In this document: positions 9,305-64,000 of the stretch, one piece after another
Layout: the number at the start of each line of letters is the position of its first letter
Numbering within the stretch: position 1 is the first letter of the stretch
Assembly (NCBI GenBank): GCA_963716255.1
Contig: OY970303.1
Location: forward strand, 480,001 to 544,000
Source: an uncultured Gemmatimonadales bacterium
GTDB lineage: Bacteria; Gemmatimonadota; Gemmatimonadetes; Longimicrobiales; Longimicrobiaceae
Length of the DNA stretch: 64,000 nt
Reading direction: 5' to 3'
Made by a program: the position numbers and the translations under genes
Notes under the pieces: generated by a model
Seen by the model: only the letters and a program-made list of their open reading frames with translations
Told to the model about the DNA's origin: nothing
Database searches by the model: none

Positions 9305-9331
9305 CAGACCTCGTCTCCAGGTGGTATTGGG

Positions 9332-12538: not shown

Positions 12539-12594
12539 GCTGATCCGGTTTGCGATCTGTGCCGATGCTGTCGTTGTCGTTGCGGCCCTCAGCG

Positions 12595-12700: not shown

Positions 12701-12704
12701 GGGG

Positions 12705-12883
12705 CCCTGCCGTTGCCGTTCCCGCAGTATCCCCCAGATCCGTTGCGGAGGGAGACAGCCGGGCAGTTTCGGCTGGCTCCCGCAGCCGGAGCGGAGACCC
12801 GCCGGCAGTTTGGCGGGGCTCCGCGACCCGCGCAGGAGACCGGCGGGGCAGTTTCCGCCGGGCTCCGGAGCGGCCCCTACGCC
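12705..12883 (-). repeat. Structured intergenic repeat family B, copy 1 (three tandem GAGCC-stem-AAACTGCC-stem-GTCTC modules)
   Basis: Reverse complement aligns with 42869-43032. Confidence 0.88.
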
Positions 12884-12893
12884 AAAACAAGCT

Positions 12894-13940
12894 CTACTGG
12901 ACGTCGTCCCACCGGAACGGGTCCGCCATTGCCGTCAACACCTTGCGCGGCCCCTTGAACGGATCCCGGGCATGGGCCGTGAGCAGGTTGTCCAGCATCA
13001 GCACGTCGCCCTGCTGCCAGGGGAAGCGCACCGTGCTGTCGCGGTAGATGCCGCGCAGCGTGTCCATGACCTCCACCGGGATGGGCGTCCCGTCCCCGTA
13101 GAGCGTGTTGTTGGGGAAGTCGTCCTCGGCGTGGAACGCGGCCTCGAACGCCGCGCGCACCGACGCGTCCAGGGTGCTGCGGTGAAAGAAGGTGGCGTGG
13201 TTGAACCAGGCGGCCTCGCCGGAGCGCGGGTGCCTGGCCACGGCGCGCCGCACCTGCCGCGTGCGCAGCCGGCCGCCGTCCTTCCATTCCACGTCGATGC
13301 GGTTGGCGGCGCAGTACGCCTCCACCTGCGCCGGGTCGTCGGTCTGGAAGGCCTCCTGCCACGAGAGCCCGAAGCCGTCGCCGAAGTTGCGGACGTACAT
13401 GTAGCCCTTTTCCTCGAACGGGCGCCGCACCTCCTCGGGGATGGCGCGGTACACCCGGCGCACGTCGGCGATGGGGGTGGCGCCCCCCTCCTCGGCCGCG
13501 ACGGTGCACATGAAGATGATCTTCAGCGGGAAGTTGAGGTTGTACGACTGCTCGTTGTGTAAAAAGATCTCCTGGTCCGCCGGGTGCTCGGTGGAGGTGT
13601 AGACCTTGTTGGCGACGTGCGTGCGCGGCGACGAGCGCTCGCCGTACTCCAGCGGCCCGCTGGAGGCGGCGGAGACGAAGCGGTTCAGGTCGGCGGAGTC
13701 GCGCATGGCGAACCCGCGGAAGAGGAGCCCGCCGTGCTTCTGCAGCAGCGACTCGGTCTCGTCGCGGTTGGCCGCGGCCCACTCCGCCAGGTCCACGCCG
13801 TCCACGGCGGGGCGGATCACCAGCGGGAGCGGCTCGCCGGGGCGGAGCGGCTCCATGCGCACCAGCGACTCCGTGGACACGCCGCCCTCGCGGGTGCGTG
13901 TGAAGGGGAGCTTCTTCCCTGGAAGGGTGGGCTTCTGCAT
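12894..13940 (-). CDS. Fe(II)/alpha-ketoglutarate dioxygenase, TauD/SyrP-like (NRPS-associated beta-hydroxylase)
   Basis: HGGLLFRGF, ERSSPR, IFLHNEQSY (HxE), GGATPIAD, WFNHATFFH, WQQGDVLMLDNLLTAHAR; embedded between NRPS genes. Confidence 0.9.
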   Translation of the reverse strand: MQKPTLPGKKLPFTRTREGGVSTESLVRMEPLRPGEPLPLVIRPAVDGVDLAEWAAANRDETESLLQKHGGLLFRGFAMRDSADLNRFVSAASSGPLEYGERSSPRTHVANKVYTSTEHPADQEIFLHNEQSYNLNFPLKIIFMCTVAAEEGGATPIADVRRVYRAIPEEVRRPFEEKGYMYVRNFGDGFGLSWQEAFQTDDPAQVEAYCAANRIDVEWKDGGRLRTRQVRRAVARHPRSGEAAWFNHATFFHRSTLDASVRAAFEAAFHAEDDFPNNTLYGDGTPIPVEVMDTLRGIYRDSTVRFPWQQGDVLMLDNLLTAHARDPFKGPRKVLTAMADPFRWDDVQ

Positions 13941-14000
13941 CTGGAACTCCTCGCCGGATCGGCGGGCTGACGTGTACGTGCTGCTGCCTGGACGAACCGC

Positions 14001-20708
<6,708 letters not shown>

Positions 20709-26375: not shown

Positions 26376-26631
26376 GACAGCCCCCGGGTGTGATTGAGGT
26401 GAGGTTTCTCTGCCTGAAACAAGGGTGGCTGTCCCGCCTTGCTTGAAGGCATCAAACAACATCGTGGCAGACAAACACCGGACGATCTCTGAACAGAACG
26501 GTGCTCGACTTACGGACGGGAGAGCAATCCAGGTAGGAGCAGGGAAGGTCCAGCAAGAGGCTGCGGCATTCTGCGCATGCGCGCTCCCACCGGATGTGAT
26601 CCGGTGTCAGCCGAGACGATTCGCGACCAAA

Positions 26632-48625: not shown

Positions 48626-48826
48626 CTACTCGATGAAGCAGATGCAGGGCCCGTCGATGCAGACCCCGCCCGAGTTCCCCTGCGAGATGCAGTCCTTGCG
48701 GCACCGCCCGGTGGCGCAGGCGAGCTCCGCGGACTCCCGGGGCTCCGCGAGCGCCTGCGTGGCTCCGAAGCCTAGGGCCGCCAGGGTGGCTAGGCCATAC
48801 AGGGTTGCGCCGAGCCTGCTTCTCAT
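48626..48826 (-). CDS. Secreted six-cysteine, CS-alpha-beta defensin-like peptide (66-aa precursor)
   Basis: Signal peptide ending ALA; C-x4-C-x3-C-x9-C-x4-C-x-C with GGVC. Confidence 0.7.
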   Translation of the reverse strand: MRSRLGATLYGLATLAALGFGATQALAEPRESAELACATGRCRKDCISQGNSGGVCIDGPCICFIE

Positions 48827-49041
48827 GAGGGCGCGCGGCGCCCACTGGGCATGTCCCGCACAGGAATCTTGCAGGGGCTGGCCGACAGGAATAGTTGCAT
48901 AGATCCGGGTAGGACACTCCACGCACCTGGGGCCGTGCGCCGCTGTCGTGGCACCGGCCCCTCGTCAAAGGAGATAGAGGGATTTCCGGGATAGATCCAG
49001 CTCCGCTTCCGTCCATACCCACAGAATCCGAGGTTCACGGA

Positions 49042-50103
49042 ATGACAACGCAACGCCGCTTTCAGATCTTCGTCGCGTCGACCTCCTGGGATCTCATCGC
49101 CGAGCGGCAAACGGTGGTGAGCGCGATTCTGGGTGCCCATCACTTTCCCGCGGGAATGGAATATTTCGCTGCGGAGCACCGACTCCCGACCGATCTGAGC
49201 AGGCAGTGGATTGAGGAATCCGACCTCTTCTGCTTACTGCTCGGACCCCGGTACGGCTCGATCGACCCAGAGTCTGGAAAGAGCTTCACGGAATGCGAAT
49301 ACGATCTCGCAATGTCACTGGGGAAGCACGTATGCGCGCTCGTTCTGGACGAGGCCTGGATCGATCGCAAGATCCGCGAATCCGATCGCCTGAAAGAGGA
49401 CCTCAGCCAACAGGACACCGTTGCATATCAGGCGTTTCGGAGCAAGGTCAAAGGTTTGCATGTTCGACCCGTCGGCTCCCCGGATGGCATCACGGCGGAA
49501 ATTTCGGGATGGACCAAAGCAGTAGAGGCCAGGGATGACATGAAAGGGTGGGTGCGAGTGGACAGCCACGACCTGTTCGCCCCCGAGCATTTGTACCTGA
49601 ATGGACCCTGGGTCGACGCCGCCTATCTGTCGAAACATGATTTTCCGCCCGACGGACTCGTCTGCTTTGGCAGCCGGTGCATGGTCGAGTGGAAGAGGGC
49701 AAGGCTTCACACGAAGGGATTCAACTATGATTACAAGGGTCGCCAGTGGGGATTCTATCAATCTGACAGTTCCGTTGGAACACCGCTCGACGTGGACTAC
49801 ACGTTCCGTTGGAACACACCGTGGGACCGGGAGTCCTCCAAGCTGGGATGCGGGAGGCTGAAGGTCATCAAGCCGCTGGACCATGCTGGCAACCAGGACG
49901 CGACTTATCGTGGATACTTCTTCACCGAGTCGTCTCTCAGGTTCCAGTACAAGGGCAGGAAGCTCCTCGACAAGGAGCAGGGCCTCCCTCCCGAAAAGGT
50001 CGTGCCTCGGTGGATGGAGCACCTGTCGCGCGAACTCGGGTGTCCGATCGCTACGCAGGAGCAGGTGGCCAGCGTGCTAGGCGGCAAGGGCGCTGTGTGG
50101 TGA
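49042..50103 (+). CDS. DUF4062-domain protein with an unknown beta-rich C-terminal domain
   Basis: FQIFVASTSWDLIAER, PAGMEYF, IEESDLF, GPRYGS, SFTECEYDLA; visibly lower GC. Confidence 0.82.
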   Translation: MTTQRRFQIFVASTSWDLIAERQTVVSAILGAHHFPAGMEYFAAEHRLPTDLSRQWIEESDLFCLLLGPRYGSIDPESGKSFTECEYDLAMSLGKHVCALVLDEAWIDRKIRESDRLKEDLSQQDTVAYQAFRSKVKGLHVRPVGSPDGITAEISGWTKAVEARDDMKGWVRVDSHDLFAPEHLYLNGPWVDAAYLSKHDFPPDGLVCFGSRCMVEWKRARLHTKGFNYDYKGRQWGFYQSDSSVGTPLDVDYTFRWNTPWDRESSKLGCGRLKVIKPLDHAGNQDATYRGYFFTESSLRFQYKGRKLLDKEQGLPPEKVVPRWMEHLSRELGCPIATQEQVASVLGGKGAVW

Positions 50104-50773: not shown

Positions 50774-53700
50774 TCAGCTCTGGCACCCGGTGTTCTTGAT
50801 CATCCCGAAGATCCTGTGTGCCGCGGGGTTGGCGATGCCACCGGAGGCGTTGAGGGGGATGCGGCCGTACCGGTTGAGGGTGACCGACCCGTTCTCGTTG
50901 CCGCCGACGGTCTCCGCGAATCGGCCACCCGCGTTTTCCACGATCCGCACGACCAGGGTGCAGTGGGAGCTGCCCGACGGCCGGACGTTCTGCCGGTCAT
51001 GCGTGCCGTCCTGCCAGAAGGCCCGGCGCAGGTTGCTGTAGCTGTGCGTGGTCAACCGCCCGTCCACCTCGCGGTTCATGCACAGCAGGTCGCCAGGCTG
51101 GACGGTGGTCTCGTTGACGATCTCGAGGGAGTCGAGGAGCCAGAACGGACGGCTGGTGTCGCTCCGCTCGCGGTTGCGGAGCGCGCCCACGATGTAGTGG
51201 ATGTGCGCCCCGGCGAACTCGAAGCCGTGCGTCCGCCGCACCCCTGCCTGGCTCATCACGTAGCAGATGAATGCGGCGCTCCACGGGAAGTTGCGGTCGT
51301 TGCGCGCCGAGGCCGCCGCGGCCACCGCGGCGTTGGCCCCTGGGACCGCTCCCCAGTAACGCTGGAGCGCGGGAAGTCGTCCGGGATCGTTCTCCGGGAT
51401 CGGCGCGCCGTTGCGCATCCAGTCCGCCAGCTCGCGGAGCGCGACGCCGGCGATGGTCTGGCCCAGCATGCACCAGTTGATCCCCGGCGCGGCCTGGAGT
51501 GGGGCCGCGCCGGCCACGGGGTGCGCGGCGCGATAGACGCGCAGGGCGCGCGCCGCGTGGCCTCTACGGGTGGTGAAGACGGCCTGCACCCTGGGATGGG
51601 TACGGGGGAGGAGGGCGCCGTTCTCCAGCAGGCTTCCCGGCACCTCGAAGCGGTAGACGACCTCGTCGGCCGAGTCGTTCACCGTGACGTTCGCCTGGGT
51701 CACGAGCCGATGGACGGCCGCGTAGCCGTTCCGGAGCTCGCTTACCAAGTAGTCGAGCTGGGCATCCATGTTGAACAGGATCGCGGAGCCCAGCGCCCGG
51801 CTCTGGTAGCCGTGCCGGAACAGCCCCGCGCGACGGGCGGAGGAGGTCCACTGCGCCAGGCCGATCCCCGGCAGGCGCGGCCCCTGCTGGGCGGCCGGGC
51901 TGCGGTTCATCACCTCGTCCGCCGTGAAGTCCCTGGTGCCGCCGGCGAAGGCGGGCGCCCGCATGGGCGTGGCCGCCGCGCTCCCCTCGATGCGGCTGGG
52001 GAGGACGCCGGACTCGGCCCACAGGTTCCCCACCAGCCCCGCCGCGCCGTTCACCGGGAAGGCGTGCTGGTTCACCAGGCACTCCATCACGTACAGGATG
52101 CGGTCGTCCGCGCTCACCCGCGGCCAGTCGGCGGTGGGGCCGCTGGCCGGCACCGCTGCGGCCTGGAGGGCGAACGCGCCGTCCTCGCGGACCAGCGGGA
52201 CCACGCCGGGAGAGACTCCCGGGTCCTCCAGCGCCGCGGCGGACGGGTAGCGCTCGAAGAGGCCGAGCGGCGCGCCGTACGCGTGGCCCGTGGCGCTTCG
52301 CCCCGTGGCTTCGAAGCGCGCCGGGAAGCCGGCCGGGTTGTACTCCCAGTGCCAGGGCTCGCGCCGGTACGGGAACCAGCCGTGCTCGCGCCCATGCAGC
52401 GCCATCCACTTGTAGACGGGTGAGCGGTACATGGCGACGATGTTGCTCATGGGCCGCGTGGTGATCTCGCGGACGCTCAGCCCCGGCACGCTCAGCAGCA
52501 GGTCGATCGCCAGGCCGTAGCAGTGCGCGGAGACGCGCTGCGCCACGGCGCTGGCGTTGGGATTCTTCGCCGCCAGCCCCTGCTGCGTGGCCAGGCTGCG
52601 CCACGCCGAGCCGATGCGCAGCGTCACGCCGTCGGCGCGGGCGGCGGCGCGCATGGCCACGTACGCGTCCTTCGCGTCCGGGTAGAGGCGGAAGCGCGTC
52701 TCGTCCGGCACCGCCTGGACGACCGAGTCCACGTCATGGTAGCGGATGGAGGTGACGCGCCGCTCGGGCACCCGGGCGGCGAGCGCGTCGAAGAGCGCGG
52801 TGGGCTCCACCGAGCGGTTCTGGTCGTTGCCGGGGAAATCTGTCCGCGACCAGTCCACCCCGGAGAGGAAGTGGCTGCGGCGCGCGGCGTCGGAGATCAG
52901 CTCGATCCCCGAGCGGCCGGTGTCGGCGATCCACGATGCGACGGCGGAAGCCAGCGGCGCGCGGGCGGCCGGGGCGGCGGCCAGCCAGGCGCGGACGTCG
53001 TCGTCCACGGCCAGCGCCTCCACGTAGCCGTATCCGCCGTGGACGCCGGCGTATCCTGCACCTTGGCCGGCGCTGGCCGGCTCGGCCTCCTCCGCCGGGT
53101 AGGCGTCATCGTCCAGGGCATGGCCGTGTGCGGCGGGCGCCAGACGCACGCTGGCGCGGACGTCCTGCAGCAGCGTGGGTCCGAAGGTGCCGGGGATCTC
53201 GTCGTGCCCGACCGTGGTCGCCTCGGCGCGGTAGGCGTCGCGGAGCGCGTCGCCGGCGCGGGGGAGGGAGCGGCCCACCATCTCGGACGCGGTGCGGGTG
53301 CCTCTTCCGTACAGGATGCGCAGCCCCCCGCCCCGCGCGCGCAGGTCGCCGGCCCCGAGCGCGCGGTCGGCGGCGATGCGGGCGAGCGCCCACCCCTCGG
53401 CGTTGGCGCCCGAGCCGTAGAGAGCGTCGAAGACGTGCACCTCGTGCGGGTTGCAGGCCGCGCGCGAGCTTCTCCACCCCAGCAGCTCGTTGAGCGGCGA
53501 GCCGCCGCCGGAGTGAGCGGTGAGGATCAGCCGCGACGTCCGCGGCGCGCCGGAGGGGCGGCGCAGCACCTCGCGCGCGAACCAGGCGAGCGAGTAGGCG
53601 ATCAGCGCCTCCAGCCCCGCCCCGCTCCCGGCCAGGAGCGCCGGGAAAGTGTAGGCGTCCGGGCGCGGCCGGGACTTGCCCTGGGGAGCGTGATTGTACG

Positions 53701-54706
53701 CGTTGAGCCGGGTCTGGTACTCCTGGCTGGTGATCTTCCGCCCGCGCGGGACGATGCCGAGCGTCGGACGCGCACGGCCGCCCAGCCTGAGGCCGCTCTT
53801 CTCGGCCTTGCGGCGGGTCAGCGCCGCGTCGGGCTCCATCGACTGGTAGCCGTGCAGGTGCACCACGACATCGATCTCGGCGCAGGCGTCGGGGACTTCG
53901 TTCCAGACGAGATACAGGTTCTCGCCGGTGCCGCCATGGCCGCGGAGCGGGTCCGACGCCCCCGCCGTGGCGGTGTTCACGTACCGCTCGCCGGCGGCGA
54001 TGACGCCGAGCGCGACCGCCGAGGGCGAGCCGAAGACGGACTCGTACTCCTCGTGGTGGTGGGCCCGGCGGCCGTTGCCGTTGTGAATCATGACGTCCTC
54101 GCGGGGGGTGTCGGTGAAGGGAGGGAGGGAGACGCGGGGGCGGCCGTCGCGGCTCTCCCGCACGCGTGACCGCGAAGAGCCGCGACGGCCGCCCGCGTGG
54201 AGCACGTGCGCCTGCACGCCGATCAGGTCGCTTGCGGCGCGGAAGTTGGCGGCCAGCGTCCGCCAGGGGAGCGTGTAGCGCTCGCCCCTGCCGACGGGCC
54301 AGGGATCGTTGATGCGCACCCAGGTGCCGTCTGGTGTGCCGTCGCCGTGCATCCCGGCGACCACGATGGAGTGCAGCCCGGGGCTGGCCTCGCCCAGCCA
54401 GACGGGGCCGTAGCGGGCCAGGACGCGGCGCAGCGCCTCCCCCGTCCAGCTGTCGCGCCGCTCCTGGGTGAGCCCCCAGGCGCGGGCCAGCGCGTCCACG
54501 TCGGCCGGGTGGAGGCCGGCGCGGTACGCCTCCCACGTCCCGGAGCCGGTGGCCACCTTCTGCGGATCGACGAAGATCGAGTCGCGCCAGCCGATGATCA
54601 TCGCCGCGGCGGCGGCCCAGCAGCTCATCCCGGTCAGCTGCGGGACGAGCGGGACCTCGTTCCACACGTCGAAGCGGCGGGCGACGCGCGTTTCGGTCTC
54701 AGGCAT
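50774..54706 (-). CDS. Polyenzyme: papain-like Cys protease + alpha/beta-hydrolase + M15/VanY-like D,D-peptidase + phage-tail-lysozyme-like + DUF2272/CHAP-like domain
   Basis: Protease: PQLTGMSCWAA..HSIVV..INDPWP. Hydrolase: HLHGY..TAHSGGG..FDALYG. M15: SAWRS..SAHCYGLAIDL..EPWHWEY. Lysozyme: GLVGNLWAESG..GIGLAQWT..AQLDYLVSEL. CHAP-like: PWSAAFI..PGDLLC..SHC..GGN. ATG 54706 overlaps the upstream stop. Confidence 0.8.
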   Translation of the reverse strand: MPETETRVARRFDVWNEVPLVPQLTGMSCWAAAAAMIIGWRDSIFVDPQKVATGSGTWEAYRAGLHPADVDALARAWGLTQERRDSWTGEALRRVLARYGPVWLGEASPGLHSIVVAGMHGDGTPDGTWVRINDPWPVGRGERYTLPWRTLAANFRAASDLIGVQAHVLHAGGRRGSSRSRVRESRDGRPRVSLPPFTDTPREDVMIHNGNGRRAHHHEEYESVFGSPSAVALGVIAAGERYVNTATAGASDPLRGHGGTGENLYLVWNEVPDACAEIDVVVHLHGYQSMEPDAALTRRKAEKSGLRLGGRARPTLGIVPRGRKITSQEYQTRLNAYNHAPQGKSRPRPDAYTFPALLAGSGAGLEALIAYSLAWFAREVLRRPSGAPRTSRLILTAHSGGGSPLNELLGWRSSRAACNPHEVHVFDALYGSGANAEGWALARIAADRALGAGDLRARGGGLRILYGRGTRTASEMVGRSLPRAGDALRDAYRAEATTVGHDEIPGTFGPTLLQDVRASVRLAPAAHGHALDDDAYPAEEAEPASAGQGAGYAGVHGGYGYVEALAVDDDVRAWLAAAPAARAPLASAVASWIADTGRSGIELISDAARRSHFLSGVDWSRTDFPGNDQNRSVEPTALFDALAARVPERRVTSIRYHDVDSVVQAVPDETRFRLYPDAKDAYVAMRAAARADGVTLRIGSAWRSLATQQGLAAKNPNASAVAQRVSAHCYGLAIDLLLSVPGLSVREITTRPMSNIVAMYRSPVYKWMALHGREHGWFPYRREPWHWEYNPAGFPARFEATGRSATGHAYGAPLGLFERYPSAAALEDPGVSPGVVPLVREDGAFALQAAAVPASGPTADWPRVSADDRILYVMECLVNQHAFPVNGAAGLVGNLWAESGVLPSRIEGSAAATPMRAPAFAGGTRDFTADEVMNRSPAAQQGPRLPGIGLAQWTSSARRAGLFRHGYQSRALGSAILFNMDAQLDYLVSELRNGYAAVHRLVTQANVTVNDSADEVVYRFEVPGSLLENGALLPRTHPRVQAVFTTRRGHAARALRVYRAAHPVAGAAPLQAAPGINWCMLGQTIAGVALRELADWMRNGAPIPENDPGRLPALQRYWGAVPGANAAVAAAASARNDRNFPWSAAFICYVMSQAGVRRTHGFEFAGAHIHYIVGALRNRERSDTSRPFWLLDSLEIVNETTVQPGDLLCMNREVDGRLTTHSYSNLRRAFWQDGTHDRQNVRPSGSSHCTLVVRIVENAGGRFAETVGGNENGSVTLNRYGRIPLNASGGIANPAAHRIFGMIKNTGCQS

Positions 54707-57700
54707 GGCGGCCGTCCTCCGCAGGGACGGTGGAGCGGTCGTCCACCCGCCCGTCCGCGCCGATCGTCCGCGTGTCCCGAGCGGAGGAAGGCACGCTCTC
54801 GATGGCGGTCCCGCCGCCGATGGTGAGAACCACGGGGCCGCGGTAGTCGGCCGGCACCGTGGCGAGCGGTCCGGCCGTCGATCTGTCGCCGAAGGTCCAG
54901 GCAACTTCCACTTCGCCGGAGGAATCGAAGTCCGCCCAGAATCGGAAGCCTCCGGCGTGGCGCGCGGCGACGCGGCGCACGGGGATCACGGCGTGGATCG
55001 GTTCGCCGGGATCGTCCGGGGCGGTGTCGGCGTTCCAGCCGTCCGTCGCCGCCACGCGCACCCGGTCGAGCTCGCCGACCGTGAGCCGGCTGAACGGGAT
55101 CTCCGCGGAGTCCTGGCAGCCGCGCAGGCGGAGGACCGGACTCCATCCCCGTTCGCTTCCGACCTCGATCGTGGCGGAGGAGTGGGCGGAGCCGGAGTGG
55201 TCGTATCCGAAGGTGATCCGCTCCCCATCCATCTCCACCTCCGTGAGCTCCGGAGCGCCCGTCAGGCGGTCGACGCGGCGGACGGGCGGGACGGCGGACT
55301 CTTCGTCGTCGCAGAAGGCGTGGAAGCGCGGCGCGCCTTCGCGGCGCAGCTCCAGGGCGACCACGTCGTCGGAGACGGGGAGGAGGACGACGGCGCGCGC
55401 GGGGCGGTCGCCCGTCATCGCGCGCACCGGGGCGGAGGAGCGGACCCGGCCCGCGCGGTCGAGCCCGACGGCGCGGAGGTCGGTCGCGAACGGGGCGCCG
55501 GAGCCCGCGCCGCGCTCCTCGACGCGCAGCGGCTGGAGCCGCACGGAGCCGTCACCCTCCAGCGTCCCGACGATGCGGAGCCGGGTGGTGCGCGGCGCGG
55601 CAGAGGGCGGCTCGGCATCCAGCAGGTCACCGAGGGCGCCGGGGGTGGAGACGGCCACGGCGCGCGCGCCCTCCGCCGGCTCCATCCGGAAGAACTCCCT
55701 CGACGTCGGCGGGGTCGGGACGACGGCGACCCAGATCGACTCCTCGAAGCCGGGGCAGCGGGCGGCGAGCGCGTTCAGCCGTTCGAGGATCTCCAGCGTC
55801 ACCGGCACGTCGCGCCCCTCCGCCGCGCCGTCGAGCGACAGCTCCGCGTCGTCGATCCAGGCGGGCTCCGAAGCCTGCACGTCGATCCCCCGGTAGGAGC
55901 GCGCTTCCTCGACGGCCTCCACCACGTCGCCCGCGGACACGCGCCGCAGCTCGCGGCCGACCGCAGCAGGGCGCACGACCACCAGCGAGCGGGTGCGGAG
56001 CGGGGCGAAGCGGATGGGGCCGAAGTCCCGCCGGTCCTCGATCTCGCCGTCCGGGCCGCGATAGACCACGGTGCCGGTCAGCCCGTCCACGGCCAGCTTC
56101 CCGGGAAGGGCGGCGGTGGCGCAGCCGGCTTCGACCCGCATCCCGATCCTCGTTTCGCCGATGAGCAGGTCGGCGTGGCCGGGGGCGTCGGCAGCGGAGA
56201 GCAGGGCGGCGACCTGTGCCTCCACCCCTTCCACCAGCACGGGCCCGGAGACGCGGAGGTCGGCGCCGCGGACGTTGACCGCGCTCGGCGGCTGCGACCG
56301 GGCGGGGTTGCTTCCGCCGACGATCCTGAGCGGCACGGCGGGGACGCGGCCCGGCTGGGCGACGTCGACGCGGCGGATGCGGACGCGGACGCGCGCGGCC
56401 AGCTCCCGGCGCACCGGGCCGCCGCACGCGCCCTGGACCACCAGCACGAACGCCGCGCGCGAGTGGTCTTCCGGGGCCCTGATCTCCAGGTGCCCCTCCG
56501 CCTCCACCGCGCCCTGCTTCGGCTCGATGGAGACGGCGCGCGCGCCGGCCACGCGCCAGGAGAGCCGCAGCGCCCCGCCTGGGTCGACCACCCCGGGCGC
56601 CAGCGACGCCTCCAGGACCACGGGCGCGCCTCCGTCGAAGCGGGCCTGCGGCGAGCGCGGCGGCGTGGGCGGCCAGGGGAGGAGCGGGATGGATTCGACG
56701 GGGACGGGACCGCCGCGCAGCGCCGGCAGCGTGTCGTTCCGCTCGCTCCACGCCAGGCGCAGCGCCTCGCGCCCGCGGTTGCTGCGCTCCCGCAGCGCCG
56801 GGTCCGCGAAGCCGATCCACCCCGCGTGCGCGCCCTCGGGGACGATGACGCCGATGGTCCCGGCGGCGGCGTCCACCACCCCGGGGAGCTGCGAGACGGA
56901 CGGGTGCCCCTGCGCGGAGAACACCACCTCGGCCAGTTCCTCCTCCAGGAGCGGGAGGAAGTGGGCGGAGTCGAGAGCGCGCTCCGCGCTCGCGGGGACC
57001 TCACCGGCGGCGAGGAATAGGATCGGCCCGTCGCCGATCAGCGGCTCAACGCGGAGGGTGACGGGCGTGCCGGGGCAGGCGTCGCGCGGCTCCACCTCAA
57101 CGATGGAGCCGGTGCCGGCGGCGTCCCAGGTGGTCGCGATCACGTCCGAGACGACGTACTCGAACAGGAGCTCCAGGCACGCCCACCGCGCCCGCTCGCA
57201 GGGATCGGTGAGGAAGGAGGCGATGGAGGCAGAGAGGCGGCGGTCCTGCCCGTTGTCGCTCCTTCCGCCCAGCCCGGCAAGCAGCGCCTTCACCTGCGAC
57301 ACCGACATCCCGGCGGCCAGCGAGCGCGCGAGCGCCTCGGCCGGGCCGGCGGCGATCGCCAGCCCCAGCACGTTGTTGATCAGCGGCTCGGCGAGCCCGG
57401 CCGGCATCCCCACCCTCCCGGCGGCGAGCGCCACGATCACCAGCCCGCCCATGTCCACCACGCCGTCGTCGCACGGGACGGCTGGCACGCTGGCCGCGAA
57501 CAGGCTCGCGTTCCCGCCGTCGCCCATGACGGCGCGGATGGCCGCGAGCGGCGGCACCTGCGTGGCGGCGAGGGCCAGGAGGAGACGCAGGCGCTCGGCG
57601 GCCAGGACGTCGTCGCCCAGGGCGCCCCCGGCGTCCTTCGCCAGCGCCTCCAGGAGCGAGAGCGGCGCCAGGAGGAGGGCTCGCGCGCCGTCCAGCGCCG

Positions 57701-57815
57701 GGTCCTGGGCCACGGCCGCGTCCAGTGCCCCCAGCAGCGCCTCGTGGCGCCGCGGATCGAGCACCACCAGCCCCTCGGCAGCCGCGTTGCTCGCCATCAT
57801 CAGCGGATCAGACAT
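54699..57815 (-). CDS. Large hypothetical protein: helical N-terminus followed by several Ig/TIG-like beta-sandwich segments
   Basis: 1038-aa GC3-biased ORF; IVEVEPRDACPGTPVTL, PGGALRLSWRVAGA, VRVAATDGWN; no signal peptide, no HExxH. Confidence 0.7.
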   Translation of the reverse strand: MSDPLMMASNAAAEGLVVLDPRRHEALLGALDAAVAQDPALDGARALLLAPLSLLEALAKDAGGALGDDVLAAERLRLLLALAATQVPPLAAIRAVMGDGGNASLFAASVPAVPCDDGVVDMGGLVIVALAAGRVGMPAGLAEPLINNVLGLAIAAGPAEALARSLAAGMSVSQVKALLAGLGGRSDNGQDRRLSASIASFLTDPCERARWACLELLFEYVVSDVIATTWDAAGTGSIVEVEPRDACPGTPVTLRVEPLIGDGPILFLAAGEVPASAERALDSAHFLPLLEEELAEVVFSAQGHPSVSQLPGVVDAAAGTIGVIVPEGAHAGWIGFADPALRERSNRGREALRLAWSERNDTLPALRGGPVPVESIPLLPWPPTPPRSPQARFDGGAPVVLEASLAPGVVDPGGALRLSWRVAGARAVSIEPKQGAVEAEGHLEIRAPEDHSRAAFVLVVQGACGGPVRRELAARVRVRIRRVDVAQPGRVPAVPLRIVGGSNPARSQPPSAVNVRGADLRVSGPVLVEGVEAQVAALLSAADAPGHADLLIGETRIGMRVEAGCATAALPGKLAVDGLTGTVVYRGPDGEIEDRRDFGPIRFAPLRTRSLVVVRPAAVGRELRRVSAGDVVEAVEEARSYRGIDVQASEPAWIDDAELSLDGAAEGRDVPVTLEILERLNALAARCPGFEESIWVAVVPTPPTSREFFRMEPAEGARAVAVSTPGALGDLLDAEPPSAAPRTTRLRIVGTLEGDGSVRLQPLRVEERGAGSGAPFATDLRAVGLDRAGRVRSSAPVRAMTGDRPARAVVLLPVSDDVVALELRREGAPRFHAFCDDEESAVPPVRRVDRLTGAPELTEVEMDGERITFGYDHSGSAHSSATIEVGSERGWSPVLRLRGCQDSAEIPFSRLTVGELDRVRVAATDGWNADTAPDDPGEPIHAVIPVRRVAARHAGGFRFWADFDSSGEVEVAWTFGDRSTAGPLATVPADYRGPVVLTIGGGTAIESVPSSARDTRTIGADGRVDDRSTVPAEDGRHA

Positions 57816-57930
57816 CGTCCGTGCGGTTGGGGGAGACTACAAAGTGCCTGGTGTCCAGTGCCAGGTGCTTCCCGTGCCGACCAGGATCGCGGCTGCCGTC
57901 GGGCAGACATCCTGAAGGCGCGCTCCGCTG

Positions 57931-59346
57931 TCAGTCGTGCGACTCCGGCGGATGCGCCTCCGCTTCCGGGGCCGGGGCCGGTGTCGGAGCCGGAGTCGCA
58001 GTCGGCGCGGGCTCGGAGCTCGGCGGTGTCGCTCCCGACGCCGTGTCGCCGCCGCCGCTCCCGCCGGCCGCGGAGAAGTCGCGGCGCTGGCGCAGGCTGC
58101 GCGCCTCGTCGGAGTCGGGGGCGGGGGGCGGCGTGGCGGGCAGCTCCGGGACTGCCTGGAAGTTGGCGGGCCGGGTGCGGCGCTCGCCGGTGTCGGCGGG
58201 GAGGAGGCTCTCCAGCTGGTGCTCCGCCACCGGGTTCATCGAGCGGTTGCGGATGTCGCGGACTGCACCCTCGCTCGTCATGCGGTTGAGCTGGATCGGC
58301 TCGGTGTGGAAGTTCACTTCCACGTCGGAGCGCAGCCCGGCCCTCACCGCGATCTCCTCGCGCGAGAACTGCTCGTCGGAGGTCACGTAGCCCACGGTGG
58401 CCTGCATGTTGGCGCTGGCCCCCCACATCCCGGTGCCGAAGGAAGCGCTCCCGCCGGTGGTGACGCGAGTGTCGGCGCGCTCGGCCTTGTTCTGCTCGGC
58501 GGTGCTCCGCGCATCCACCTGCAGGTTCATCGAGGCGTGGATCCGCCCCGCGTCCACCACGATGCGGTTCATCCCCATCAGCAGCATGGTGGAAAGCATC
58601 GCCTGGCGGTCGCGGGCCAGCTTGCGCTTCACCAGCGGGAGGAGCGTCTCCTCCAGCTCGTCCTCCTGGATGGTGGAGACCTCCTCCTCGGTGGCGTCGA
58701 GCGCGCTCTTCAGCTCGTCCTCCTCCGGCATATCCGCGCTCTCGCCCAGTTCCAGGATGGGCGGGGCCCCCTCGGCGGTGACCACGCGGAAGACCGGGAA
58801 GCGCTGCGCCGCCCAGTCCATCGCCCGGCCGGTGGTGATGCTGCTGGCGGCGAACTGGCCGGTGCTCATCCCCACCGCCCCCAGCAGGTCGGCGTACGCC
58901 GTGAGCTGCTGGATGGTGGATGTGTTCATCGCCTGGAAGACGCCCGTGATCAGCGAGGTGACGAAGCCGGGGAAGTCGATGGCGTTCCTGACGTTCTGCA
59001 GCACCCCCGCGGCCGAGTCCACCGCCGTGCGGCGATGGAAGTCGCCCGCCGCCTGCGCCCGGGCGAGCGCCGACTTCCCCGGGTCGGAAGCCGACATCCC
59101 GGCCGCGACCGCAGCCGGCTCCCCGGCGGGAGACGTGGAGAAGGCGGGGGAGGTGGACGACCTCCGGCGGCCGATCTGGTCCGTCAGCCGCCCGTCCACT
59201 TCCATCAGGTCGCAGGCGGTGGCGCAGACGCGCACCATGCTCTCGGCCAGGCGCCGCTGCAGCGCCGGGTCGCGGCGCAGCTCGGGCGTACGCTCGACGA
59301 CGGCGCGGACGGCGCGCCGGACGGTATCGAGCGTCCCACGGCTCAT
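57931..59346 (-). CDS. Uncharacterised paralog family, member 4 (most divergent)
   Basis: IDFPGFVTSLITGVFQA..QQLTAY, MLLMGMNRIVV, VEVNFHTE; ATG abuts the upstream stop. Confidence 0.85.
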   Translation of the reverse strand: MSRGTLDTVRRAVRAVVERTPELRRDPALQRRLAESMVRVCATACDLMEVDGRLTDQIGRRRSSTSPAFSTSPAGEPAAVAAGMSASDPGKSALARAQAAGDFHRRTAVDSAAGVLQNVRNAIDFPGFVTSLITGVFQAMNTSTIQQLTAYADLLGAVGMSTGQFAASSITTGRAMDWAAQRFPVFRVVTAEGAPPILELGESADMPEEDELKSALDATEEEVSTIQEDELEETLLPLVKRKLARDRQAMLSTMLLMGMNRIVVDAGRIHASMNLQVDARSTAEQNKAERADTRVTTGGSASFGTGMWGASANMQATVGYVTSDEQFSREEIAVRAGLRSDVEVNFHTEPIQLNRMTSEGAVRDIRNRSMNPVAEHQLESLLPADTGERRTRPANFQAVPELPATPPPAPDSDEARSLRQRRDFSAAGGSGGGDTASGATPPSSEPAPTATPAPTPAPAPEAEAHPPESHD

Positions 59347-60266
59347 CACGCCGCCCCGGCCGACGCGCCCCAGCTTTCCGCGTCGCGGATGACCGGGGCG
59401 CCCCGCGGGACGCGCACCGCGCCGGCGTCCAGGCGCGCCGCCTCGTCCGCGATCCAGCTGATGATCCGCATCCCCGACTGCGCCCGCGACAGGCGGCCCT
59501 GCACGTCCACCTGCCGCCCCAGGAGGCGGGGCGCGTGCCGGGACACGATCATCCACGGGCTCCCCCCGCCCATCGCCCTCACCACGTCCGCGTTGCGGAG
59601 GATGGAGAGCGCGGACCTCACCTGCGCCACGATGTCGCGCGCCGCGAAGGCCGCGATCCCGACGGCGCGGTTCGACAGCAGCGCTCCCAGTTCTTGCGCC
59701 TGCGCGGCGGCGCGGGCCTCCAGGCTCCCCGTCCCCAGGTCCTGCCTTGACCGGCCGATGGCCCTGAGCGTCTCCGCCAGCGCCTGGAGCTTCGGCTCCA
59801 CCGCGTCGCCCGGCTGCGGCTGCGCGGGGTCGCCCAGGAGGCGGGCGAAGAGGGCGCGCCGCTCGGCGCCGGTGAAGCGGTGGTCGCGCGACCTCCAGAA
59901 GCGGACCAGCTCGTGGACGGCCGCGCCCAGCGGCTCCATGATCGCCCCGGCCGCCACCCCCTGCGCCAGCGCCTCCACCAAGGGGAGGAGCCCGGCGGCC
60001 TCCAGCTCCGCCGCCCAGAAGAGCACCCCCGCAACGCGGAGCTGTGCGTCCACCAGGCGCCCGCCGCTCAGGGGCGGAAGGTCGATGACCCCCAGCGCGG
60101 CGGGACCGTACTGGCCGCGCACCGCCTCCATGTGCCGGGCCAGCAGCTCGTCGCAGTGGTCCAGCCCGGAGAGCTCCGGCGCCGCGTCGGCCACCGCGAG
60201 CGCGGCGGCCTGCGCGCTCCCGGGGACCGGGAAGATCGGGACCTGGGAAAGGAATCGGGAACTCAT
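59346..60266 (-). CDS. Uncharacterised, predicted all-helical protein
   Basis: ATG 60266 overlaps the upstream TGA (ATGA); 306 aa, amphipathic helical pattern. Confidence 0.8.
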   Translation of the reverse strand: MSSRFLSQVPIFPVPGSAQAAALAVADAAPELSGLDHCDELLARHMEAVRGQYGPAALGVIDLPPLSGGRLVDAQLRVAGVLFWAAELEAAGLLPLVEALAQGVAAGAIMEPLGAAVHELVRFWRSRDHRFTGAERRALFARLLGDPAQPQPGDAVEPKLQALAETLRAIGRSRQDLGTGSLEARAAAQAQELGALLSNRAVGIAAFAARDIVAQVRSALSILRNADVVRAMGGGSPWMIVSRHAPRLLGRQVDVQGRLSRAQSGMRIISWIADEAARLDAGAVRVPRGAPVIRDAESWGASAGAA

Positions 60267-61375
60267 TTCTGCGCCCGCTCGTTGACGGACTGGATCTGGA
60301 CGGACGAGGCCATCTTGTCGAGCGGGAAGGTCTCGCTCTTGAAGTTCACGCGGACCTCGCCGGTCAGGTTTGCCTTCATCTGCGCCTTGGACTCGCTGGT
60401 GTCGTCCACGCTCGACGTCACCACCGTCTTGTGCGTCTCCTGCGAGTCGTCGAAGCTGCTGCTGAACCACCCGCCGCCGTCGTGGGTCTGCCTGGCGGTG
60501 TCCTTCTGGTCGTAGAGCGAGGCGCGCGACTGGCGGTTGGCGTTGTCGTTGGCCTTCACGTCAAAGACCACCTTTGCGTTGATCAGCCCGTCGGTCACCA
60601 CGATGCGGTTGATCCCCAGAAGGACCATGGTGGCGAGCTGCTGCTGGCGCATCCTGGCCATCTCCAGCTGCGCCTGGCGCGTCAGCCGCGCCTCGCCCTC
60701 CTCTTCGTCCAGATCGAAGTCCTCCTTGATCCCCAGCGTGCTCTTCACGCCGGCCAGCGCCTTCTCCTCGTCGTCGACCCCGGGGCGCATCCGCAGCCGC
60801 GGCTTGCCGCCGTTCGTGTCGACGGTGAAAGTCTCGGGGAAGCGGTCGCTCAGGTAGTCGCGCGCCTGGTTCTGGGAGATGTGGTCCGAGGCGAACTGGT
60901 CGACGCTCTTGACCACCCCCTCCAGAAGCTTCCCGTACGCCTGCATCTGCCGGATGGAGGAGTCGACGATGGAGGTGAAGACGCCCTCGATCAGCCCCGA
61001 GACGAACTTGGGGAAGTCGACCGAGTCGACCAGCTCCTTGAAGGCTTTGGTCCCGGCCTCCATCGCGCCGGCCTTGAAGTCCCTCCCCACCACGTCCTGC
61101 TTGTTCGCCAGCCGGTCGCCCGTCTTCTCGGCGGCCGTCTTCTTCTCGGCCAGCGACTCGGCGAGCTCCGTCTCCGTCCCCATCGCCCCGGCGAGCTCGG
61201 GCTGCCCGGCCGCGGGGTCGGCCAAAAAGGCCACCACGTCCACCAGGCCCTGCGCAATCCGCCTGCGGTCGGGCTCGGGCATCCGTTTCCAGGCGTCGGA
61301 GCGCTCCAGGAGGCCCTTCACCTCGGAGCGGACCACGTCCTGCCGCTCGGGCGGGAGGTTCTTCAGCGCGGTCAT
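60263..61375 (-). CDS. Uncharacterised paralog family, member 3
   Basis: True start MTALKNLPP at 61375 (ATGA overlap); VDFPKFVSGLIEGVF, GINRIVVTDG, GEVRVNFKSET. Confidence 0.88.
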   Translation of the reverse strand: MTALKNLPPERQDVVRSEVKGLLERSDAWKRMPEPDRRRIAQGLVDVVAFLADPAAGQPELAGAMGTETELAESLAEKKTAAEKTGDRLANKQDVVGRDFKAGAMEAGTKAFKELVDSVDFPKFVSGLIEGVFTSIVDSSIRQMQAYGKLLEGVVKSVDQFASDHISQNQARDYLSDRFPETFTVDTNGGKPRLRMRPGVDDEEKALAGVKSTLGIKEDFDLDEEEGEARLTRQAQLEMARMRQQQLATMVLLGINRIVVTDGLINAKVVFDVKANDNANRQSRASLYDQKDTARQTHDGGGWFSSSFDDSQETHKTVVTSSVDDTSESKAQMKANLTGEVRVNFKSETFPLDKMASSVQIQSVNERAQK

Positions 61376-62544
61376 GCGGTCCCCCGCTGGGCCGGGGCGG
61401 GCGCGGGAGCGCGGGCCGCCGCGGGAGCGCCGGCCGCGGGGGCCGCTCCCGGCTGCGAGAGGTAGTTCATCTGGTCCATCTGCAGCGCGTCCAGCATGCG
61501 CTCGGGCGGGAGGGTCTCGCTCTTGAAGTTCACGCGCACCTCGCCGGTGAGCTGCGCCTTCATCGCCGCCTTCGACTCGCTGGAGTCGTCGATGGAGCTG
61601 CGCACGGTGGTCTTGTGCTTCTGCTGGCTGTAGCCGCCCGCCGCCCCCCAGGGGAGCGCCGCAGTGGCGACGCCGCCCGTCTCGGACTGCGCCTGGTCGT
61701 CCAGGGAGGCCTTCGCATTCCGCCTGGCGTTGTCGCTGGCCTTGACGTCGAAGATCACCTTGGCGTTGATGCGGCCGTTGGTGACCACGATGCGGTTGAT
61801 CCCCAGCATCACCATCAGCGCCATCATCTTCTGGCGCTGGCGGGCCATCTCCAGCTTGGCGGCGGCGATGAACTTCTTCTCGCTTTCGGCGCTTGAAAGG
61901 TCGACCCGCTCCGTCGTCCGCGCGAACTGCTGGAGGCCGGCGGTGTCGCCGTCGCCGTCGTCGCTCGCCTGCATCAGGCGGGAGGTGCCGTCCTCGTCGC
62001 GGGAGATGCGCACGAGCGAGGGGAAGCGCTGCGCCACCTGCTCGCGCGCCTGGTCGTCGGAGATGTGGTCCTCGGCGAACTGGCCGACGGTCTTTGCGGT
62101 GGCGGCCAGGAGCTCGCCGTACGCCTCCATCTGCTGGATGGAGGCGTCGACGATGGCCTGGAAGACACCCTGGATCAGTCCGCTGACGAACGCCGGGAAG
62201 TCCACCGTCTGCACGAGGTTGCCAAACTCCTGCACGCCCTGCCTCATGGCGCCCGCCTCGAAGTCGGTCCCCACCTGGCCTGGCGCCTTGGCCAGGCGCT
62301 TCTTCAGGTCGTCCACCGGCCCCATGGCCTCGGCCATCCCCGCGCTCCCCGGCGGGTCGGCGGCGTCGAGCCACCCCGGGTCCCTGGCGAGGTACGCCGC
62401 CACCTTCACCATGTCCTGGGCGAAGGCCTTCCGGTCCGCGGGGCCCATGGTCTGCCACGCGGCCGACTGCGAAAGGACGTTGCCGACCTCCTGCCGGACC
62501 AGTCCGACGTCGTCCGGCGGGGCCGCGAGGGGCGTCGCGTCCAT
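61372..62544 (-). CDS. Uncharacterised paralog family, member 2
   Basis: VDFPAFVSGLIQGVFQAIVDASIQQMEAY, GINRIVVTNG, GEVRVNFKSET. Confidence 0.9.
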   Translation of the reverse strand: MDATPLAAPPDDVGLVRQEVGNVLSQSAAWQTMGPADRKAFAQDMVKVAAYLARDPGWLDAADPPGSAGMAEAMGPVDDLKKRLAKAPGQVGTDFEAGAMRQGVQEFGNLVQTVDFPAFVSGLIQGVFQAIVDASIQQMEAYGELLAATAKTVGQFAEDHISDDQAREQVAQRFPSLVRISRDEDGTSRLMQASDDGDGDTAGLQQFARTTERVDLSSAESEKKFIAAAKLEMARQRQKMMALMVMLGINRIVVTNGRINAKVIFDVKASDNARRNAKASLDDQAQSETGGVATAALPWGAAGGYSQQKHKTTVRSSIDDSSESKAAMKAQLTGEVRVNFKSETLPPERMLDALQMDQMNYLSQPGAAPAAGAPAAARAPAPAPAQRGTA

Positions 62545-62547
62545 GGA

Positions 62548-63921
62548 TCAGGCCGCCGGCGCGGGGGCGACGGGCGTCTGCGCGGGGGCGGGGGCGGGCG
62601 GGGACGCCGCGGGAGCTCCGGCCGCTGCGGGGGCGCCCGGGGCCGGCGCGCCCCGGCCGGCGCTCTTCACGCGCTCCAGCTTGAAGATGTCGGCCTCGGC
62701 CACCAGCTTGTTGAGGTCCACCGTCTCCGACTTGAAGTTGAGCGACACCTCGCCGCGCAGCTGCCCCTCAGCCGAGACCTCGGCGTTGGTCGCCGTCTCG
62801 GTCATGTTGGACAGCGTGATCACCGGCGTGGTGGTGGTCTGGTCGACCCCGCGCGTCCACCGCGAGCTCTCGCCCGACTTGCTGGACCCGCGGTTCCACC
62901 ACCCGCGCGAGTTGCTCTCGTTGTAGTTCTCCCCGGTCTGCTCCGAGCTCTCGCGCTCCGACTGCGTGACCACGATGTTTCCCTGGTTCTCGTAGTCGAA
63001 GGTCTGCGCGTACGAGTTCATCGTGTCGCGGGCGCGGAAGTCGAAGCGCAGCTTCGCGTTGATCTTTCCGTCCGTGACCACGATCCGGTTGATCCCCATC
63101 AACAGCATGGTCGCCAACAGCGTCTGGCGGCTGCGCGCCAGGTCGTTGCGCGCGGCGGGGACCAGCTTCTCCTCGATGACCTCCTCGTCCAGGTCGTCGA
63201 CGTCCTCGTCCAGCCCCAGGTCGGCGCGGAAGTTGGGAAGCGTCATCCCGCCGGCGTTCGGCCGCGGCCCCACCTTGGGCTGGCCGTCCACGATGTTGAC
63301 CTGCATCAGCGTGGGATACTTGCCCACCAGGTGGTCGCGCGCCTGGTTCTCGGTGACGTTCTGGTCGCGGAAGTCGGAAAGCGACATCGCCACCGACTGC
63401 ACCATCTCGCCGTACGCTTTCATCTGCTGGACGGAGGCGTCGACCACGGCCTGGAAGACGCCCTGGATCAGCTCGGCGACGAAGTTGGGGAAGTTGACCT
63501 CGCGCAGCAGCTCGCCCGCCTGCTGCACCCCCATGGCGATCCCGCTCCCGAAGTCGCCGGCCTTCTTGGGCCCGATGTTGTCGGAACGCCGGGTGGTGGC
63601 GCCGCCGCTCCCCTTCAGGAAGGCGCCGCGGTCGGTGGTCGTCACCCCCGTCTGCCCCTGTCCGGGGCGGCCGGGGATCCCCCCGACGCCGGTCCTGTCG
63701 TCCATGGAGACGGCGAAGGGGTCGCCCCCGCCGCCGCCCTCCGCGGCCACCTGGCTGAGCCGGTTGGCGGCCAGCGTGGCGACGACCGCCTCGGTGTTCC
63801 GGCGGATGCTCTCCTGGTCGGCCGGGGGGAGCGCGTGGTACGACGCGCTCCGCCCCAGCATCTCGCCCACCTGCCGCCGGACCTCGTGGTCCTGTTCGGG
63901 CCGGCTCAACGTGCTCGTCAT
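62548..63921 (-). CDS. Uncharacterised paralog family, member 1 (longest central Ser/Thr-rich segment)
   Basis: VNFPNFVAELIQGVFQAVVDASVQQMKAY, GINRIVVTDG, GEVSLNFKSET; GGAGG SD upstream. Confidence 0.9.
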   Translation of the reverse strand: MTSTLSRPEQDHEVRRQVGEMLGRSASYHALPPADQESIRRNTEAVVATLAANRLSQVAAEGGGGGDPFAVSMDDRTGVGGIPGRPGQGQTGVTTTDRGAFLKGSGGATTRRSDNIGPKKAGDFGSGIAMGVQQAGELLREVNFPNFVAELIQGVFQAVVDASVQQMKAYGEMVQSVAMSLSDFRDQNVTENQARDHLVGKYPTLMQVNIVDGQPKVGPRPNAGGMTLPNFRADLGLDEDVDDLDEEVIEEKLVPAARNDLARSRQTLLATMLLMGINRIVVTDGKINAKLRFDFRARDTMNSYAQTFDYENQGNIVVTQSERESSEQTGENYNESNSRGWWNRGSSKSGESSRWTRGVDQTTTTPVITLSNMTETATNAEVSAEGQLRGEVSLNFKSETVDLNKLVAEADIFKLERVKSAGRGAPAPGAPAAAGAPAASPPAPAPAQTPVAPAPAA

Positions 63922-63957
63922 GGCTCAAGTCCTCCCGGCCGGGTCGACCGGCCGGCG

Positions 63958-64000
63958 TCAGGCGTGGTATGGGTCGGCGTACGCGGGCGCCGCGGCGTGG
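63958..64000 (-). CDS. 3' end of an upstream gene of the same operon (truncated)
   Basis: Frame HAAAPAYADPYHA* ends 36 bp upstream of the next start. Confidence 0.45.
   Translation of the reverse strand, partial: HAAAPAYADPYHA

Follow-up and report, generated by a model that had tools for sequence, protein, structure and literature searches.

The window examined here is a 64,000-bp stretch of DNA from an uncultured Gemmatimonadales bacterium of the family Longimicrobiaceae (contig OY970303.1 of assembly GCA_963716255.1; G000:C1:480001-544000 within a single-contig genome of 8.4 Mb), and its right end carries the last seven genes of an operon of 14 co-oriented genes. The operon encodes five paralogous proteins (T1 to T5), an S8 subtilase, a DMATS/ABBA prenyltransferase-like protein (PT), two helical proteins (H1 and H2), a Trypco2-like/TIG adaptor, a small protein named c5, two cargo proteins and a protein of 1038 amino acids (aa). 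This is a real, widespread and strongly conserved system, with a mechanism that seems probable in outline. The interpretation tentatively preferred, to which slightly less than even weight is given, is that of a sigma54-induced, protease-matured beta-barrel pore or translocon that would deliver wall-lytic enzymes, most likely against other bacteria. The gene combination was not found described in the literature searched, from which subscription papers were mostly absent and in which supplements were not covered; the neighbourhood tables of PMC7159879, PMC3482391 and 10.1101/2025.11.14.688446 could list the operon.

Organization of the operon

Seven minus-strand open reading frames (ORFs) with a coding-like GC content at third codon positions, judged by reading-frame GC bias and overlap pattern, were found at positions 50774-63921 of the window, which bears out an earlier note that had described seven co-oriented genes there from the sequence alone. 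The gaps at their junctions are, in the order of transcription, +3, -4, -4, -1, +115 and -8, and therefore five of six junctions abut or overlap, again as had been noted. The suggestion that the operon continued past position 64000 proved correct, with seven more genes found over a further ~8.5 kb.

All 14 genes lie on the minus strand. Transcription begins, beyond the window, with the ORFs of an upstream cargo protein (679 aa, G000:C1:550466-552505), T1 (class a, 377 aa, G000:C1:549329-550462) and c5 (77 aa, G000:C1:549099-549332), and proceeds through the adaptor (290 aa, G000:C1:548230-549102), an ORF with below-cutoff family matches, the S8 subtilase (490 aa, G000:C1:546765-548237; Pfam S8 E 3.8e-38), H1 (541 aa, G000:C1:545063-546688), an ORF for a helical protein, and PT (361 aa, G000:C1:543958-545043), putatively assigned by weak Trp_DMAT matches, the last 43 nt of which fall inside the window at 63958..64000. 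The genes of the window follow in the order T2 (class b, 457 aa, 62548..63921), an ORF with the longest and most polar of the beta-hairpins described below, as judged by alignment and hairpin measurement; T3 (class c, 390 aa, 61372..62544), an extra copy found for the most part in the clade of the window; T4 (class d, 370 aa, 60263..61375), analysed by model, covariation, column profile and motif scan; H2 (306 aa, 59346..60266); T5 (class e, 471 aa, 57931..59346), with a Gly/aromatic hairpin tip containing Trp; the 1038-aa accessory protein (54699..57815), restricted to the window's clade; and the downstream cargo polyprotein (1310 aa, 50774..54706), with an ATG at 54706 and a possible second start at 54091.

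A motif search identified a sigma54-type promoter element (GG-N10-GC; G000:C1:552567-552581, minus strand) 5' of the first operon gene, and the same element is shared by 7 of the 9 loci of the close clade (0.55 expected) for a pattern fixed after the sequences had been inspected. A sigma54 activator (333 aa, G000:C1:552943-553944, minus strand) was recognized by family scan just upstream of the operon, and activators occupy the same place in 6 of the 80 loci surveyed below, most of which are too short to reach it, and on one plasmid. Contigs of one RNA library (5% of words) include pieces ~85-90% alike along the operon; contigs as such cannot show transcription. Upstream of the activator, two transposase-like ORFs, presumably IS630-like, and an integrase-like ORF were noticed (G000:C1:554940-556108, 564716-566314), which suggests a mobile region.

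Conservation and variants

A GTDB scan with T2 of the window gave 458 confirmed stretches, and the best 80 loci were analysed. They span at least nine phyla, with an almost invariant order of the core genes, and a conserved association with genes for the partner, protease and hydrolases, named in the earlier note as a point to be surveyed, was indeed found. Presence was counted in the 79 loci with a PT-T2 anchor, each time among those with enough sequence, and reached 75/76 for H1, 64/65 for S8, 59/60 for the adaptor, 58/59 for c5, 53/54 for T1, 63/63 for H2 and 54/55 for T5. The count for PT (77/77) is partly circular, the T gene that follows PT having served as the anchor; direct tblastn detected PT in 79 of 80 loci. 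The misses of H1, S8, adaptor and T1 all came from a single locus, L041 of Cupriavidus necator, in which the PT and T genes are kept and the upstream half is missing, probably as a result of decay.

Complete loci (n = 44) contained four T copies in 33 cases, five in nine and six in two. In a quick tree of 87 rows, the T sequences grouped by operon position and not by host (7 label changes vs 49.6 after shuffling); the rows came from the genome of the window, two reduced loci and 24 of the 80 loci, and those without a recognisable core had been dropped. The operon was found on four plasmid records, and in a strict first look only 2 of 41 related genomes carried it.

A reduced cyanobacterial variant, comprising S8, one H, one T, cargo, c5 and adaptor without PT, is represented by four closely related loci, one on a Tolypothrix plasmid and three on metagenome contigs, one of them short. 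Its cargo carries an Ntox11 domain.

T paralogs

The four paralogs recognized in the earlier note align in all the motifs it quoted, at pairwise identities of 31-51%; the genome search returned five matches, so that T1, outside the window, has to be added to them. One search with T4 gave 1898 homologs at E<=0.001, the clusters at 50% identity numbered 1923, and the nearest named homologs belong to Longimicrobium.

The AlphaFold2 model of T4 (pLDDT 72.6, pTM 0.48) comprises a confident N-terminal helical hairpin (residues 9-52), a disordered linker (65-100) and long helices (121-155 and 225-255) around an insert, followed by a predicted beta-hairpin (~255-347) with Trp303 at its tip and modelled strands 263-272 and 336-345, against the base of which a helix (100-122) packs. 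In a covariation analysis of 477 sequences, 17 of the top 70 pairs fell on one antiparallel register, from 256-347 to 298-308, compared with 0.72 expected for this register band, which was picked after viewing the pairs. Because the covarying pairs lie on one register, the low-confidence segment 279-331 is taken to be the hairpin continuing to a tip near Trp303. According to covariation, T thus contains a beta-hairpin of ~45 residues per strand, with which the tube or pore idea of the earlier note fits. The length of the hairpin depends on the class, amounting to 76-80 residues in class a (n = 12), 92-132 in b (n = 55), 88-137 in c (n = 19), 89-100 in d (n = 65) and 88 in e (50 of 50), and the reduced variant has a single T; with both facts in view, the hetero-oligomer proposed earlier stays hypothetical.

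The middles of the hairpins are rich in Ser, Thr, Ala and Gly and largely polar. A Trp residue was found near the tip in 15/19 sequences of class c, 64/65 of class d, 50/50 of class e and 9/55 of class b, and the tip of the single-T variant is Phe-rich. A non-pore structure was also considered, in which T, H, c5 and the adaptor would form a filament, spike, shell or inclusion storing or displaying the enzymes and the hairpins would make a soluble beta-barrel or sheet that never enters a membrane. The polar middles, the lack of an amphipathic face in classes a and b, the variation of hairpin length with class and the covariation, which shows a hairpin without showing a pore, speak for it, but the aromatic tips of classes d and e and of the single-T variant argue against it, as does the lack of any PHROG match for T, H and the small genes, and it is given only a modest chance. 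For the preferred pore or translocon, the Trp-tipped classes would be the ones to enter the membrane.

No known relative of T was identified. MACPF/CDC was absent from the 25 Pfam families listed for 100 T4 homologs and from those of the five paralogs, comparison of T with PDB sequences gave no match at E<0.3, and the T4 model, with its pTM of 0.48, had no Foldseek match at E<=0.001 in PDB or BFVD. The best VIA match of this model (Z 5.6, rmsd 2.4 over 51 residues) concerned the N-terminal hairpin. A search of the Atlas with T4 returned unnamed clusters and one lead, DUF2589, and no T relatives were found in viral contigs. Such missing matches, for a model of T4 as for that of H1, do not prove new folds.

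Candidate processing motif

In classes b-e, the T core is preceded at a constant spacing by the motif [AVS]-x-A-[LQ] with a small or acidic residue behind it, which was counted in 44/78, 14/21, 50/65 and 45/55 sequences, respectively, compared with 33/234, 5/57, 15/195 and 3/161 control windows. This A-x-A-L/Q motif is located after the N-terminal hairpin and fits the cleavage preferences of subtilisins. In T4, the candidate site lies after L75, inside the disordered linker of the model, and T5 has a strong candidate site after Q98; in T2, T3 and the polyprotein linkers of the window, only looser variants were seen by eye. A matrix trained on the T sites alone found 51 sites in the cargo versus 11.4 in shuffled sequences (4.5-fold). 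The motif precedes the C70 domain in 26/45 cases, the amidase in 6/8, the trypsin in 9/18 and the C-terminal domain in 11/17, against a background of 0.17 of all cargo windows, and in the reduced cyanobacterial variant a related motif is repeated 9-10 times before Ntox11 (0.5 expected). Its position after the T hairpin and before cargo domains suggests that S8 may process both T pro-subunits and cargo polyproteins.

Cargo genes

The presence of a Cys protease and three wall hydrolases in the last gene, as read in the earlier note, was confirmed by Pfam matches of the 1310-aa polyprotein to Peptidase_C70 (E 2.7e-28), VanY (6.9e-9), Phage_lysozyme2 (3.7e-13) and DUF2272 (6.3e-19). The list needed two amendments: an alpha/beta-hydrolase-like segment, read from motifs and without a Pfam match, had been missed between the papain-like C70 and the M15/VanY domain, and DUF2272 has Ser at the position where CHAP enzymes have Cys. 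The domains carry catalytic-type motifs. The replacement of Cys by Ser in DUF2272 is described in PMC10318531.

This particular polyenzyme is not conserved, as C70 was found in 37/80 loci, DUF2272 in 1/80 and the VanY, lysozyme and alpha/beta segments in none of the 80. The papain domain thus behaves as variable cargo, and the maturing protease envisaged in the earlier note is most likely not this domain but the S8 subtilase encoded outside the window. A cargo-type gene lies directly 5' of T1 in 49/51 loci, and the 38 of these genes that were scanned, from a total of 69, many of which are truncated where the locus ends, encoded C70 (23), trypsin (14), Amidase_2 (12), C92 (8) and Amidase_3 (3) domains or no known family (6). 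Cargo is, therefore, shuffled and mostly wall- or protein-degrading. The 1038-aa gene occurs in 11/80 loci and in 9 of these 11 is followed by a C70 gene with otherwise differing partner domains; the description of its product as Ig-rich found no support, with no match in Pfam, NCBIfam, PHROG or PDB sequences.

None of the 42 complete cargo starts was signal-like in a crude hydrophobicity test, and the lack of Sec/Tat signals claimed earlier was examined by a crude hydrophobicity scan only; a scan of the same kind revealed no transmembrane helix in any core gene. These results, the lack of an evident immunity gene, the sigma54 control and the presence of all needed parts in one cytoplasm would agree with programmed self-lysis, in which an S8-matured T barrel acts as a large holin, opening the inner membrane of the producer itself, so that the hydrolases reach its own peptidoglycan; this could serve development, biofilm DNA or the release of further products. 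One endolysin would, however, be enough for that purpose, yet domains are extensively shuffled in the cargo, with trypsin, C70, C92 and Ntox11 among them, which looks like an arms race, and a holin would not require four to six specialised paralogs, whose hairpins by far exceed the thickness of a bilayer. Self-lysis is accordingly given only a modest chance, well below that of delivery of the enzymes to other bacteria.

Other features of the cargo were also noticed. A C-terminal beta-rich domain without a Pfam family recurs in several cargo proteins (L059:202-3447, L030:3-3230 and similar ones), often after a candidate cut site and in some cases also after a hydrophobic helix. In the cargo of the reduced variant (L086:15117-17282, L088:11093-13285), Leu/Gly-rich, amphipathic-looking segments stand right after candidate cut sites and by eye resemble lytic peptides. 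A DUF3467 gene directly precedes the cargo in some loci (L085:3667-4074, L053:304-660).

S8, adaptor, H and PT proteins

Family scans of the core genes (Pfam, NCBIfam, PADLOC and PHROGs) gave only the S8 match and weak matches of PT (Trp_DMAT) and of the adaptor (Trypco2/TIG), and profiles of T, PT, H1 and the 1038-aa protein retrieved nothing, or only noise, from PDB sequences. Together with the fold searches (Foldseek on T4 and H1), these results support the earlier note in that no match to a characterised family or fold was obtained for the paralogs or for H1.

The Asp-His-Ser triad and the oxyanion Asn of S8 are invariant in 42/42 aligned homologs, by which the gene codes for a subtilase with intact catalytic residues. 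The protein stands alone, has no transmembrane segment in its 490 aa and is read as cytoplasmic. It scored 168.6 with the NCBIfam mycosin model (cutoff 278.75) and 92 bits with the PatA/PatG model (cutoff 421, E 3.4e-26).

Among 50 adaptor homologs, below-cutoff matches to Trypco2 were obtained for 20 and to TIG for 14. Trypco2 was not listed for any T homolog and was absent from the three c5 proteins scanned; comparisons of the adaptor with T and of c5 with the adaptor were not significant. The weak Trypco2 match and the patchy distribution of the operon are compatible with an abortive-infection defence, in which S8, freed by a phage signal, would arm the pore formers and hydrolases and the infected cell would die, as with Pepco/EACC1 modules; protease-gated beta-barrel pores of such logic are reported for Pepco in 10.1101/2025.11.14.688446. 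Nevertheless, no sensor domain was detected in the operon, S8 was matched in PADLOC only by subtilase/IetS models, and a sigma54 activator of its own implies that the operon is induced at the level of transcription. Polymorphic wall-lytic cargo would also be unusual for defence, and this explanation appears distinctly improbable.

The helical partner of the earlier note, H2, is a real gene, but has to be redefined as a paralog of the C-terminal half of the upstream 541-aa H1 (28% identity over 214 aa, E 7e-17). The H1 model (pLDDT 87.7) had no fold match at E<=0.001, the best one reaching Z 5.0 and rmsd 4.8 over 133 residues with the N-domain barely tested, and H1 had no match in the Atlas.

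Weak Trp_DMAT matches were obtained for 37/60 PT homologs (best E 1.9e-4), which share conserved Arg/Lys/Tyr columns. An S8 protease and an ABBA-type prenyltransferase form the enzyme pair of cyanobactin pathways, but a maturation of this kind, with S8 and PT cutting and prenylating short repeated peptides of the acidic linkers and T/H as accessories, is very improbable despite the PatA/PatG match of S8, far below cutoff, and the repeated motif-flanked acidic peptides of the reduced variant, as no short precursor gene with conserved cassettes and no YcaO were seen in the operon, the variant with the clearest repeats lacks PT, and T and H are the most constant parts.

Comparison with known systems

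By analogy, the operon would work like binary toxins, CDCL toxins or Pepco, with membership shown in none of them. In binary AB toxins, a pro-piece of the B component is removed by a subtilase-family protease, the pore has a long beta-barrel stem and the enzyme cargo is separate; these toxins are secreted, homo-oligomeric and aimed at animal cells. By this description, the operon differs from them in a cargo directed at bacterial walls and in T proteins without a PDB-sequence match.

The CDCL toxins of Bacteroidota (cholesterol-dependent cytolysin-like) are, according to PMC11169675, two-component relatives of CDC activated by a C11 protease on the target surface and can have an immunity lipoprotein. 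The presumed likeness lies in paralogous subunits, removal of an N-terminal propeptide, a beta-barrel pore and bacterial targets. In contrast, proteins of the operon showed no such family match, and both the protease and the enzyme cargo are encoded within it.

Pepco is a 117-aa protein of phage defence, the C-terminal tail of which is cut by a sensor-fused protease, as stated in 10.1101/2025.11.14.688446. Subunits with a helix and beta-strands, protease gating and a beta-barrel oligomer would be shared with Pepco/Trypco (see also PMC7159879), along with the weak Trypco2 match. The T proteins differ in their 370-470 aa, N-terminal pro-hairpin and four to six paralogs, as does the stand-alone S8, with no sensor found.

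Polymorphic toxins, type VII secretion systems (T7SS) and Photorhabdus virulence cassettes (PVC) resemble the operon in a constant machinery with variable toxic cargo and a neighbouring subtilase, and Ntox11, the domain of the reduced variant, is listed with PVC in a survey of polymorphic toxins (PMC3482391). The cargo described here differs, being a multi-enzyme polyprotein and not a single C-terminal toxin. The earlier note recognised no component of type VI secretion, extracellular contractile injection, phage tails or T7SS, and scans for marker families agree with this: sheath, tube, baseplate and VgrG/PAAR were absent from Pfam, NCBIfam and PHROGs results for the operon proteins scanned, FtsK/EccC ATPase and WXG100 had no match in the operon family scans, and S8 remained below the mycosin cutoff. 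The only nucleoside triphosphatase in these scans was the sigma54 activator.

The Atlas lead for T4, DUF2589 (PF11655), had a score of 0.76, with the family on 19% of the cluster. Tandem DUF2589 pairs show by eye the same plan of a helix, an insert and a long Ser/Thr-rich hairpin with a GW tip, but homology with T was not significant, as the profile-profile comparison (hhalign) gave E 0.0045 versus 0.0046 for the reversed control. PF11655 had no match in the genome, with the controls also silent. In one locus (L083:701-3603, genome G136), a small helix-strand gene and one resembling a hydrolase come after two DUF2589 paralogs, with S8, H and PT absent in the 3.6 kb seen; it may be a separate undescribed system of similar logic.

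Proposed mechanism

For the preferred pore or translocon, the steps from cleavage, oligomerization and membrane insertion through prenylation and export to the target are envisaged as follows. The operon, preceded by its promoter motif, would be switched on by its own sigma54 activator. The cytoplasmic S8, an intact enzyme, would mature and cut after the A-x-A-L/Q-type sites, removing the N-terminal helical hairpin from each T subunit and setting amidases, lysozymes, peptidases and other domains that resemble toxins free from the cargo polyproteins. The matured T would polymerise through their long beta-hairpins into a long beta-barrel, with the Trp-tip classes c, d and e entering the membrane and the polar classes a and b extending or seeding the tube. 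In the weakest step, H1/H2, c5 and the Trypco2-like/TIG protein might serve as a scaffold, as chaperones or in receptor binding, and PT might add a prenyl anchor, possibly on the tip Trp. Finally, the assembly would be set free when some producers lyse, or upon contact, and would breach the envelope of a neighbour, giving the enzymes access to its peptidoglycan.

In favour of this mechanism are the nearly constant core order over at least nine phyla, the grouping of T by operon position, the antiparallel register of the hairpin, the placement of the motif in T and cargo, the shuffled and mostly degradative cargo, Ntox11 behind its motif repeats in the reduced variant, and the patchy distribution with plasmid copies and an insertion sequence upstream. 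Several observations weigh against it. In the AlphaFold2 model of T4 (pTM 0.48), residues 279-331 have pLDDT <50. The amphipathicity of the tips is weak (0.40 vs 0.21 shuffled in class d, 0.41 vs 0.35 in e and 0.31 vs 0.19 in c), and those of classes a and b show no amphipathic alternation. The motif pattern is short, Ala-rich and drawn from the same sequences; it is rare in T1/class a (4/26) and raised also in PT and H2, and the T-trained matrix was 1.7-fold up in non-operon neighbours (19 vs 11.2), found no site in T2 and T3 of the window and placed one weak non-linker site in its polyprotein. No export route is evident and no immunity gene either, with cargo abutting T1 in nearly all loci. 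The assignment of PT relies on weak family matches and its link with the Trp tip on a single PT-less lineage. Conservation is overstated for distant members because the 80 loci are the best of 458 T2 matches.

A bolder version, less likely than the general reading and regarded as doubtful, would be a new class of protein-delivery machine, in which T paralogs specialised by position and sharing a new beta-hairpin fold form, by stacking, a long needle or pore. This structure would be lipid-anchored by prenylation, be armed by the operon's subtilase and move enzymes cut from a shuffled polyprotein into other bacteria without Sec, Tat or phage-tail parts.

Other genes in the window

Downstream of the operon, lower-GC DNA adjoining its end carries a DUF4062 protein (353 aa, 49042-50103, plus strand) with no PADLOC match and a C-terminal half without family assignment. 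A small Cys-rich ORF (48626-48922, minus strand) had weak defensin-like matches (E 0.004) and a hydrophobic leader-like segment. Farther away, the window contains an LRR-Roc-COR (Roco) protein (1022 aa, 23406-26474, minus strand) in a low-GC stretch (GC 0.58 at 24001-26000) and a hybrid polyketide synthase-nonribosomal peptide synthetase cluster with a TauD dioxygenase (2465-20708, minus strand).

Biological significance

T and H represent two structural families for which the searches found no family or fold match, in a gene order conserved across at least nine phyla, and cultured carriers include Lysobacter, Ramlibacter, Bradyrhizobium and cyanobacteria. Sharp predictions follow as to cut sites, barrel formation and lipidation, and the cyanobacterial variant with its single T is small enough to be studied directly. 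Even under the rival explanations, the operon would encode a protease-gated assembly of a new kind, in which polyproteins are processed in the manner of convertases inside a bacterial cytoplasm and a DMATS-like enzyme possibly prenylates proteins. If the delivery machine is real, it would constitute a new route of interbacterial attack in soil and water bacteria.

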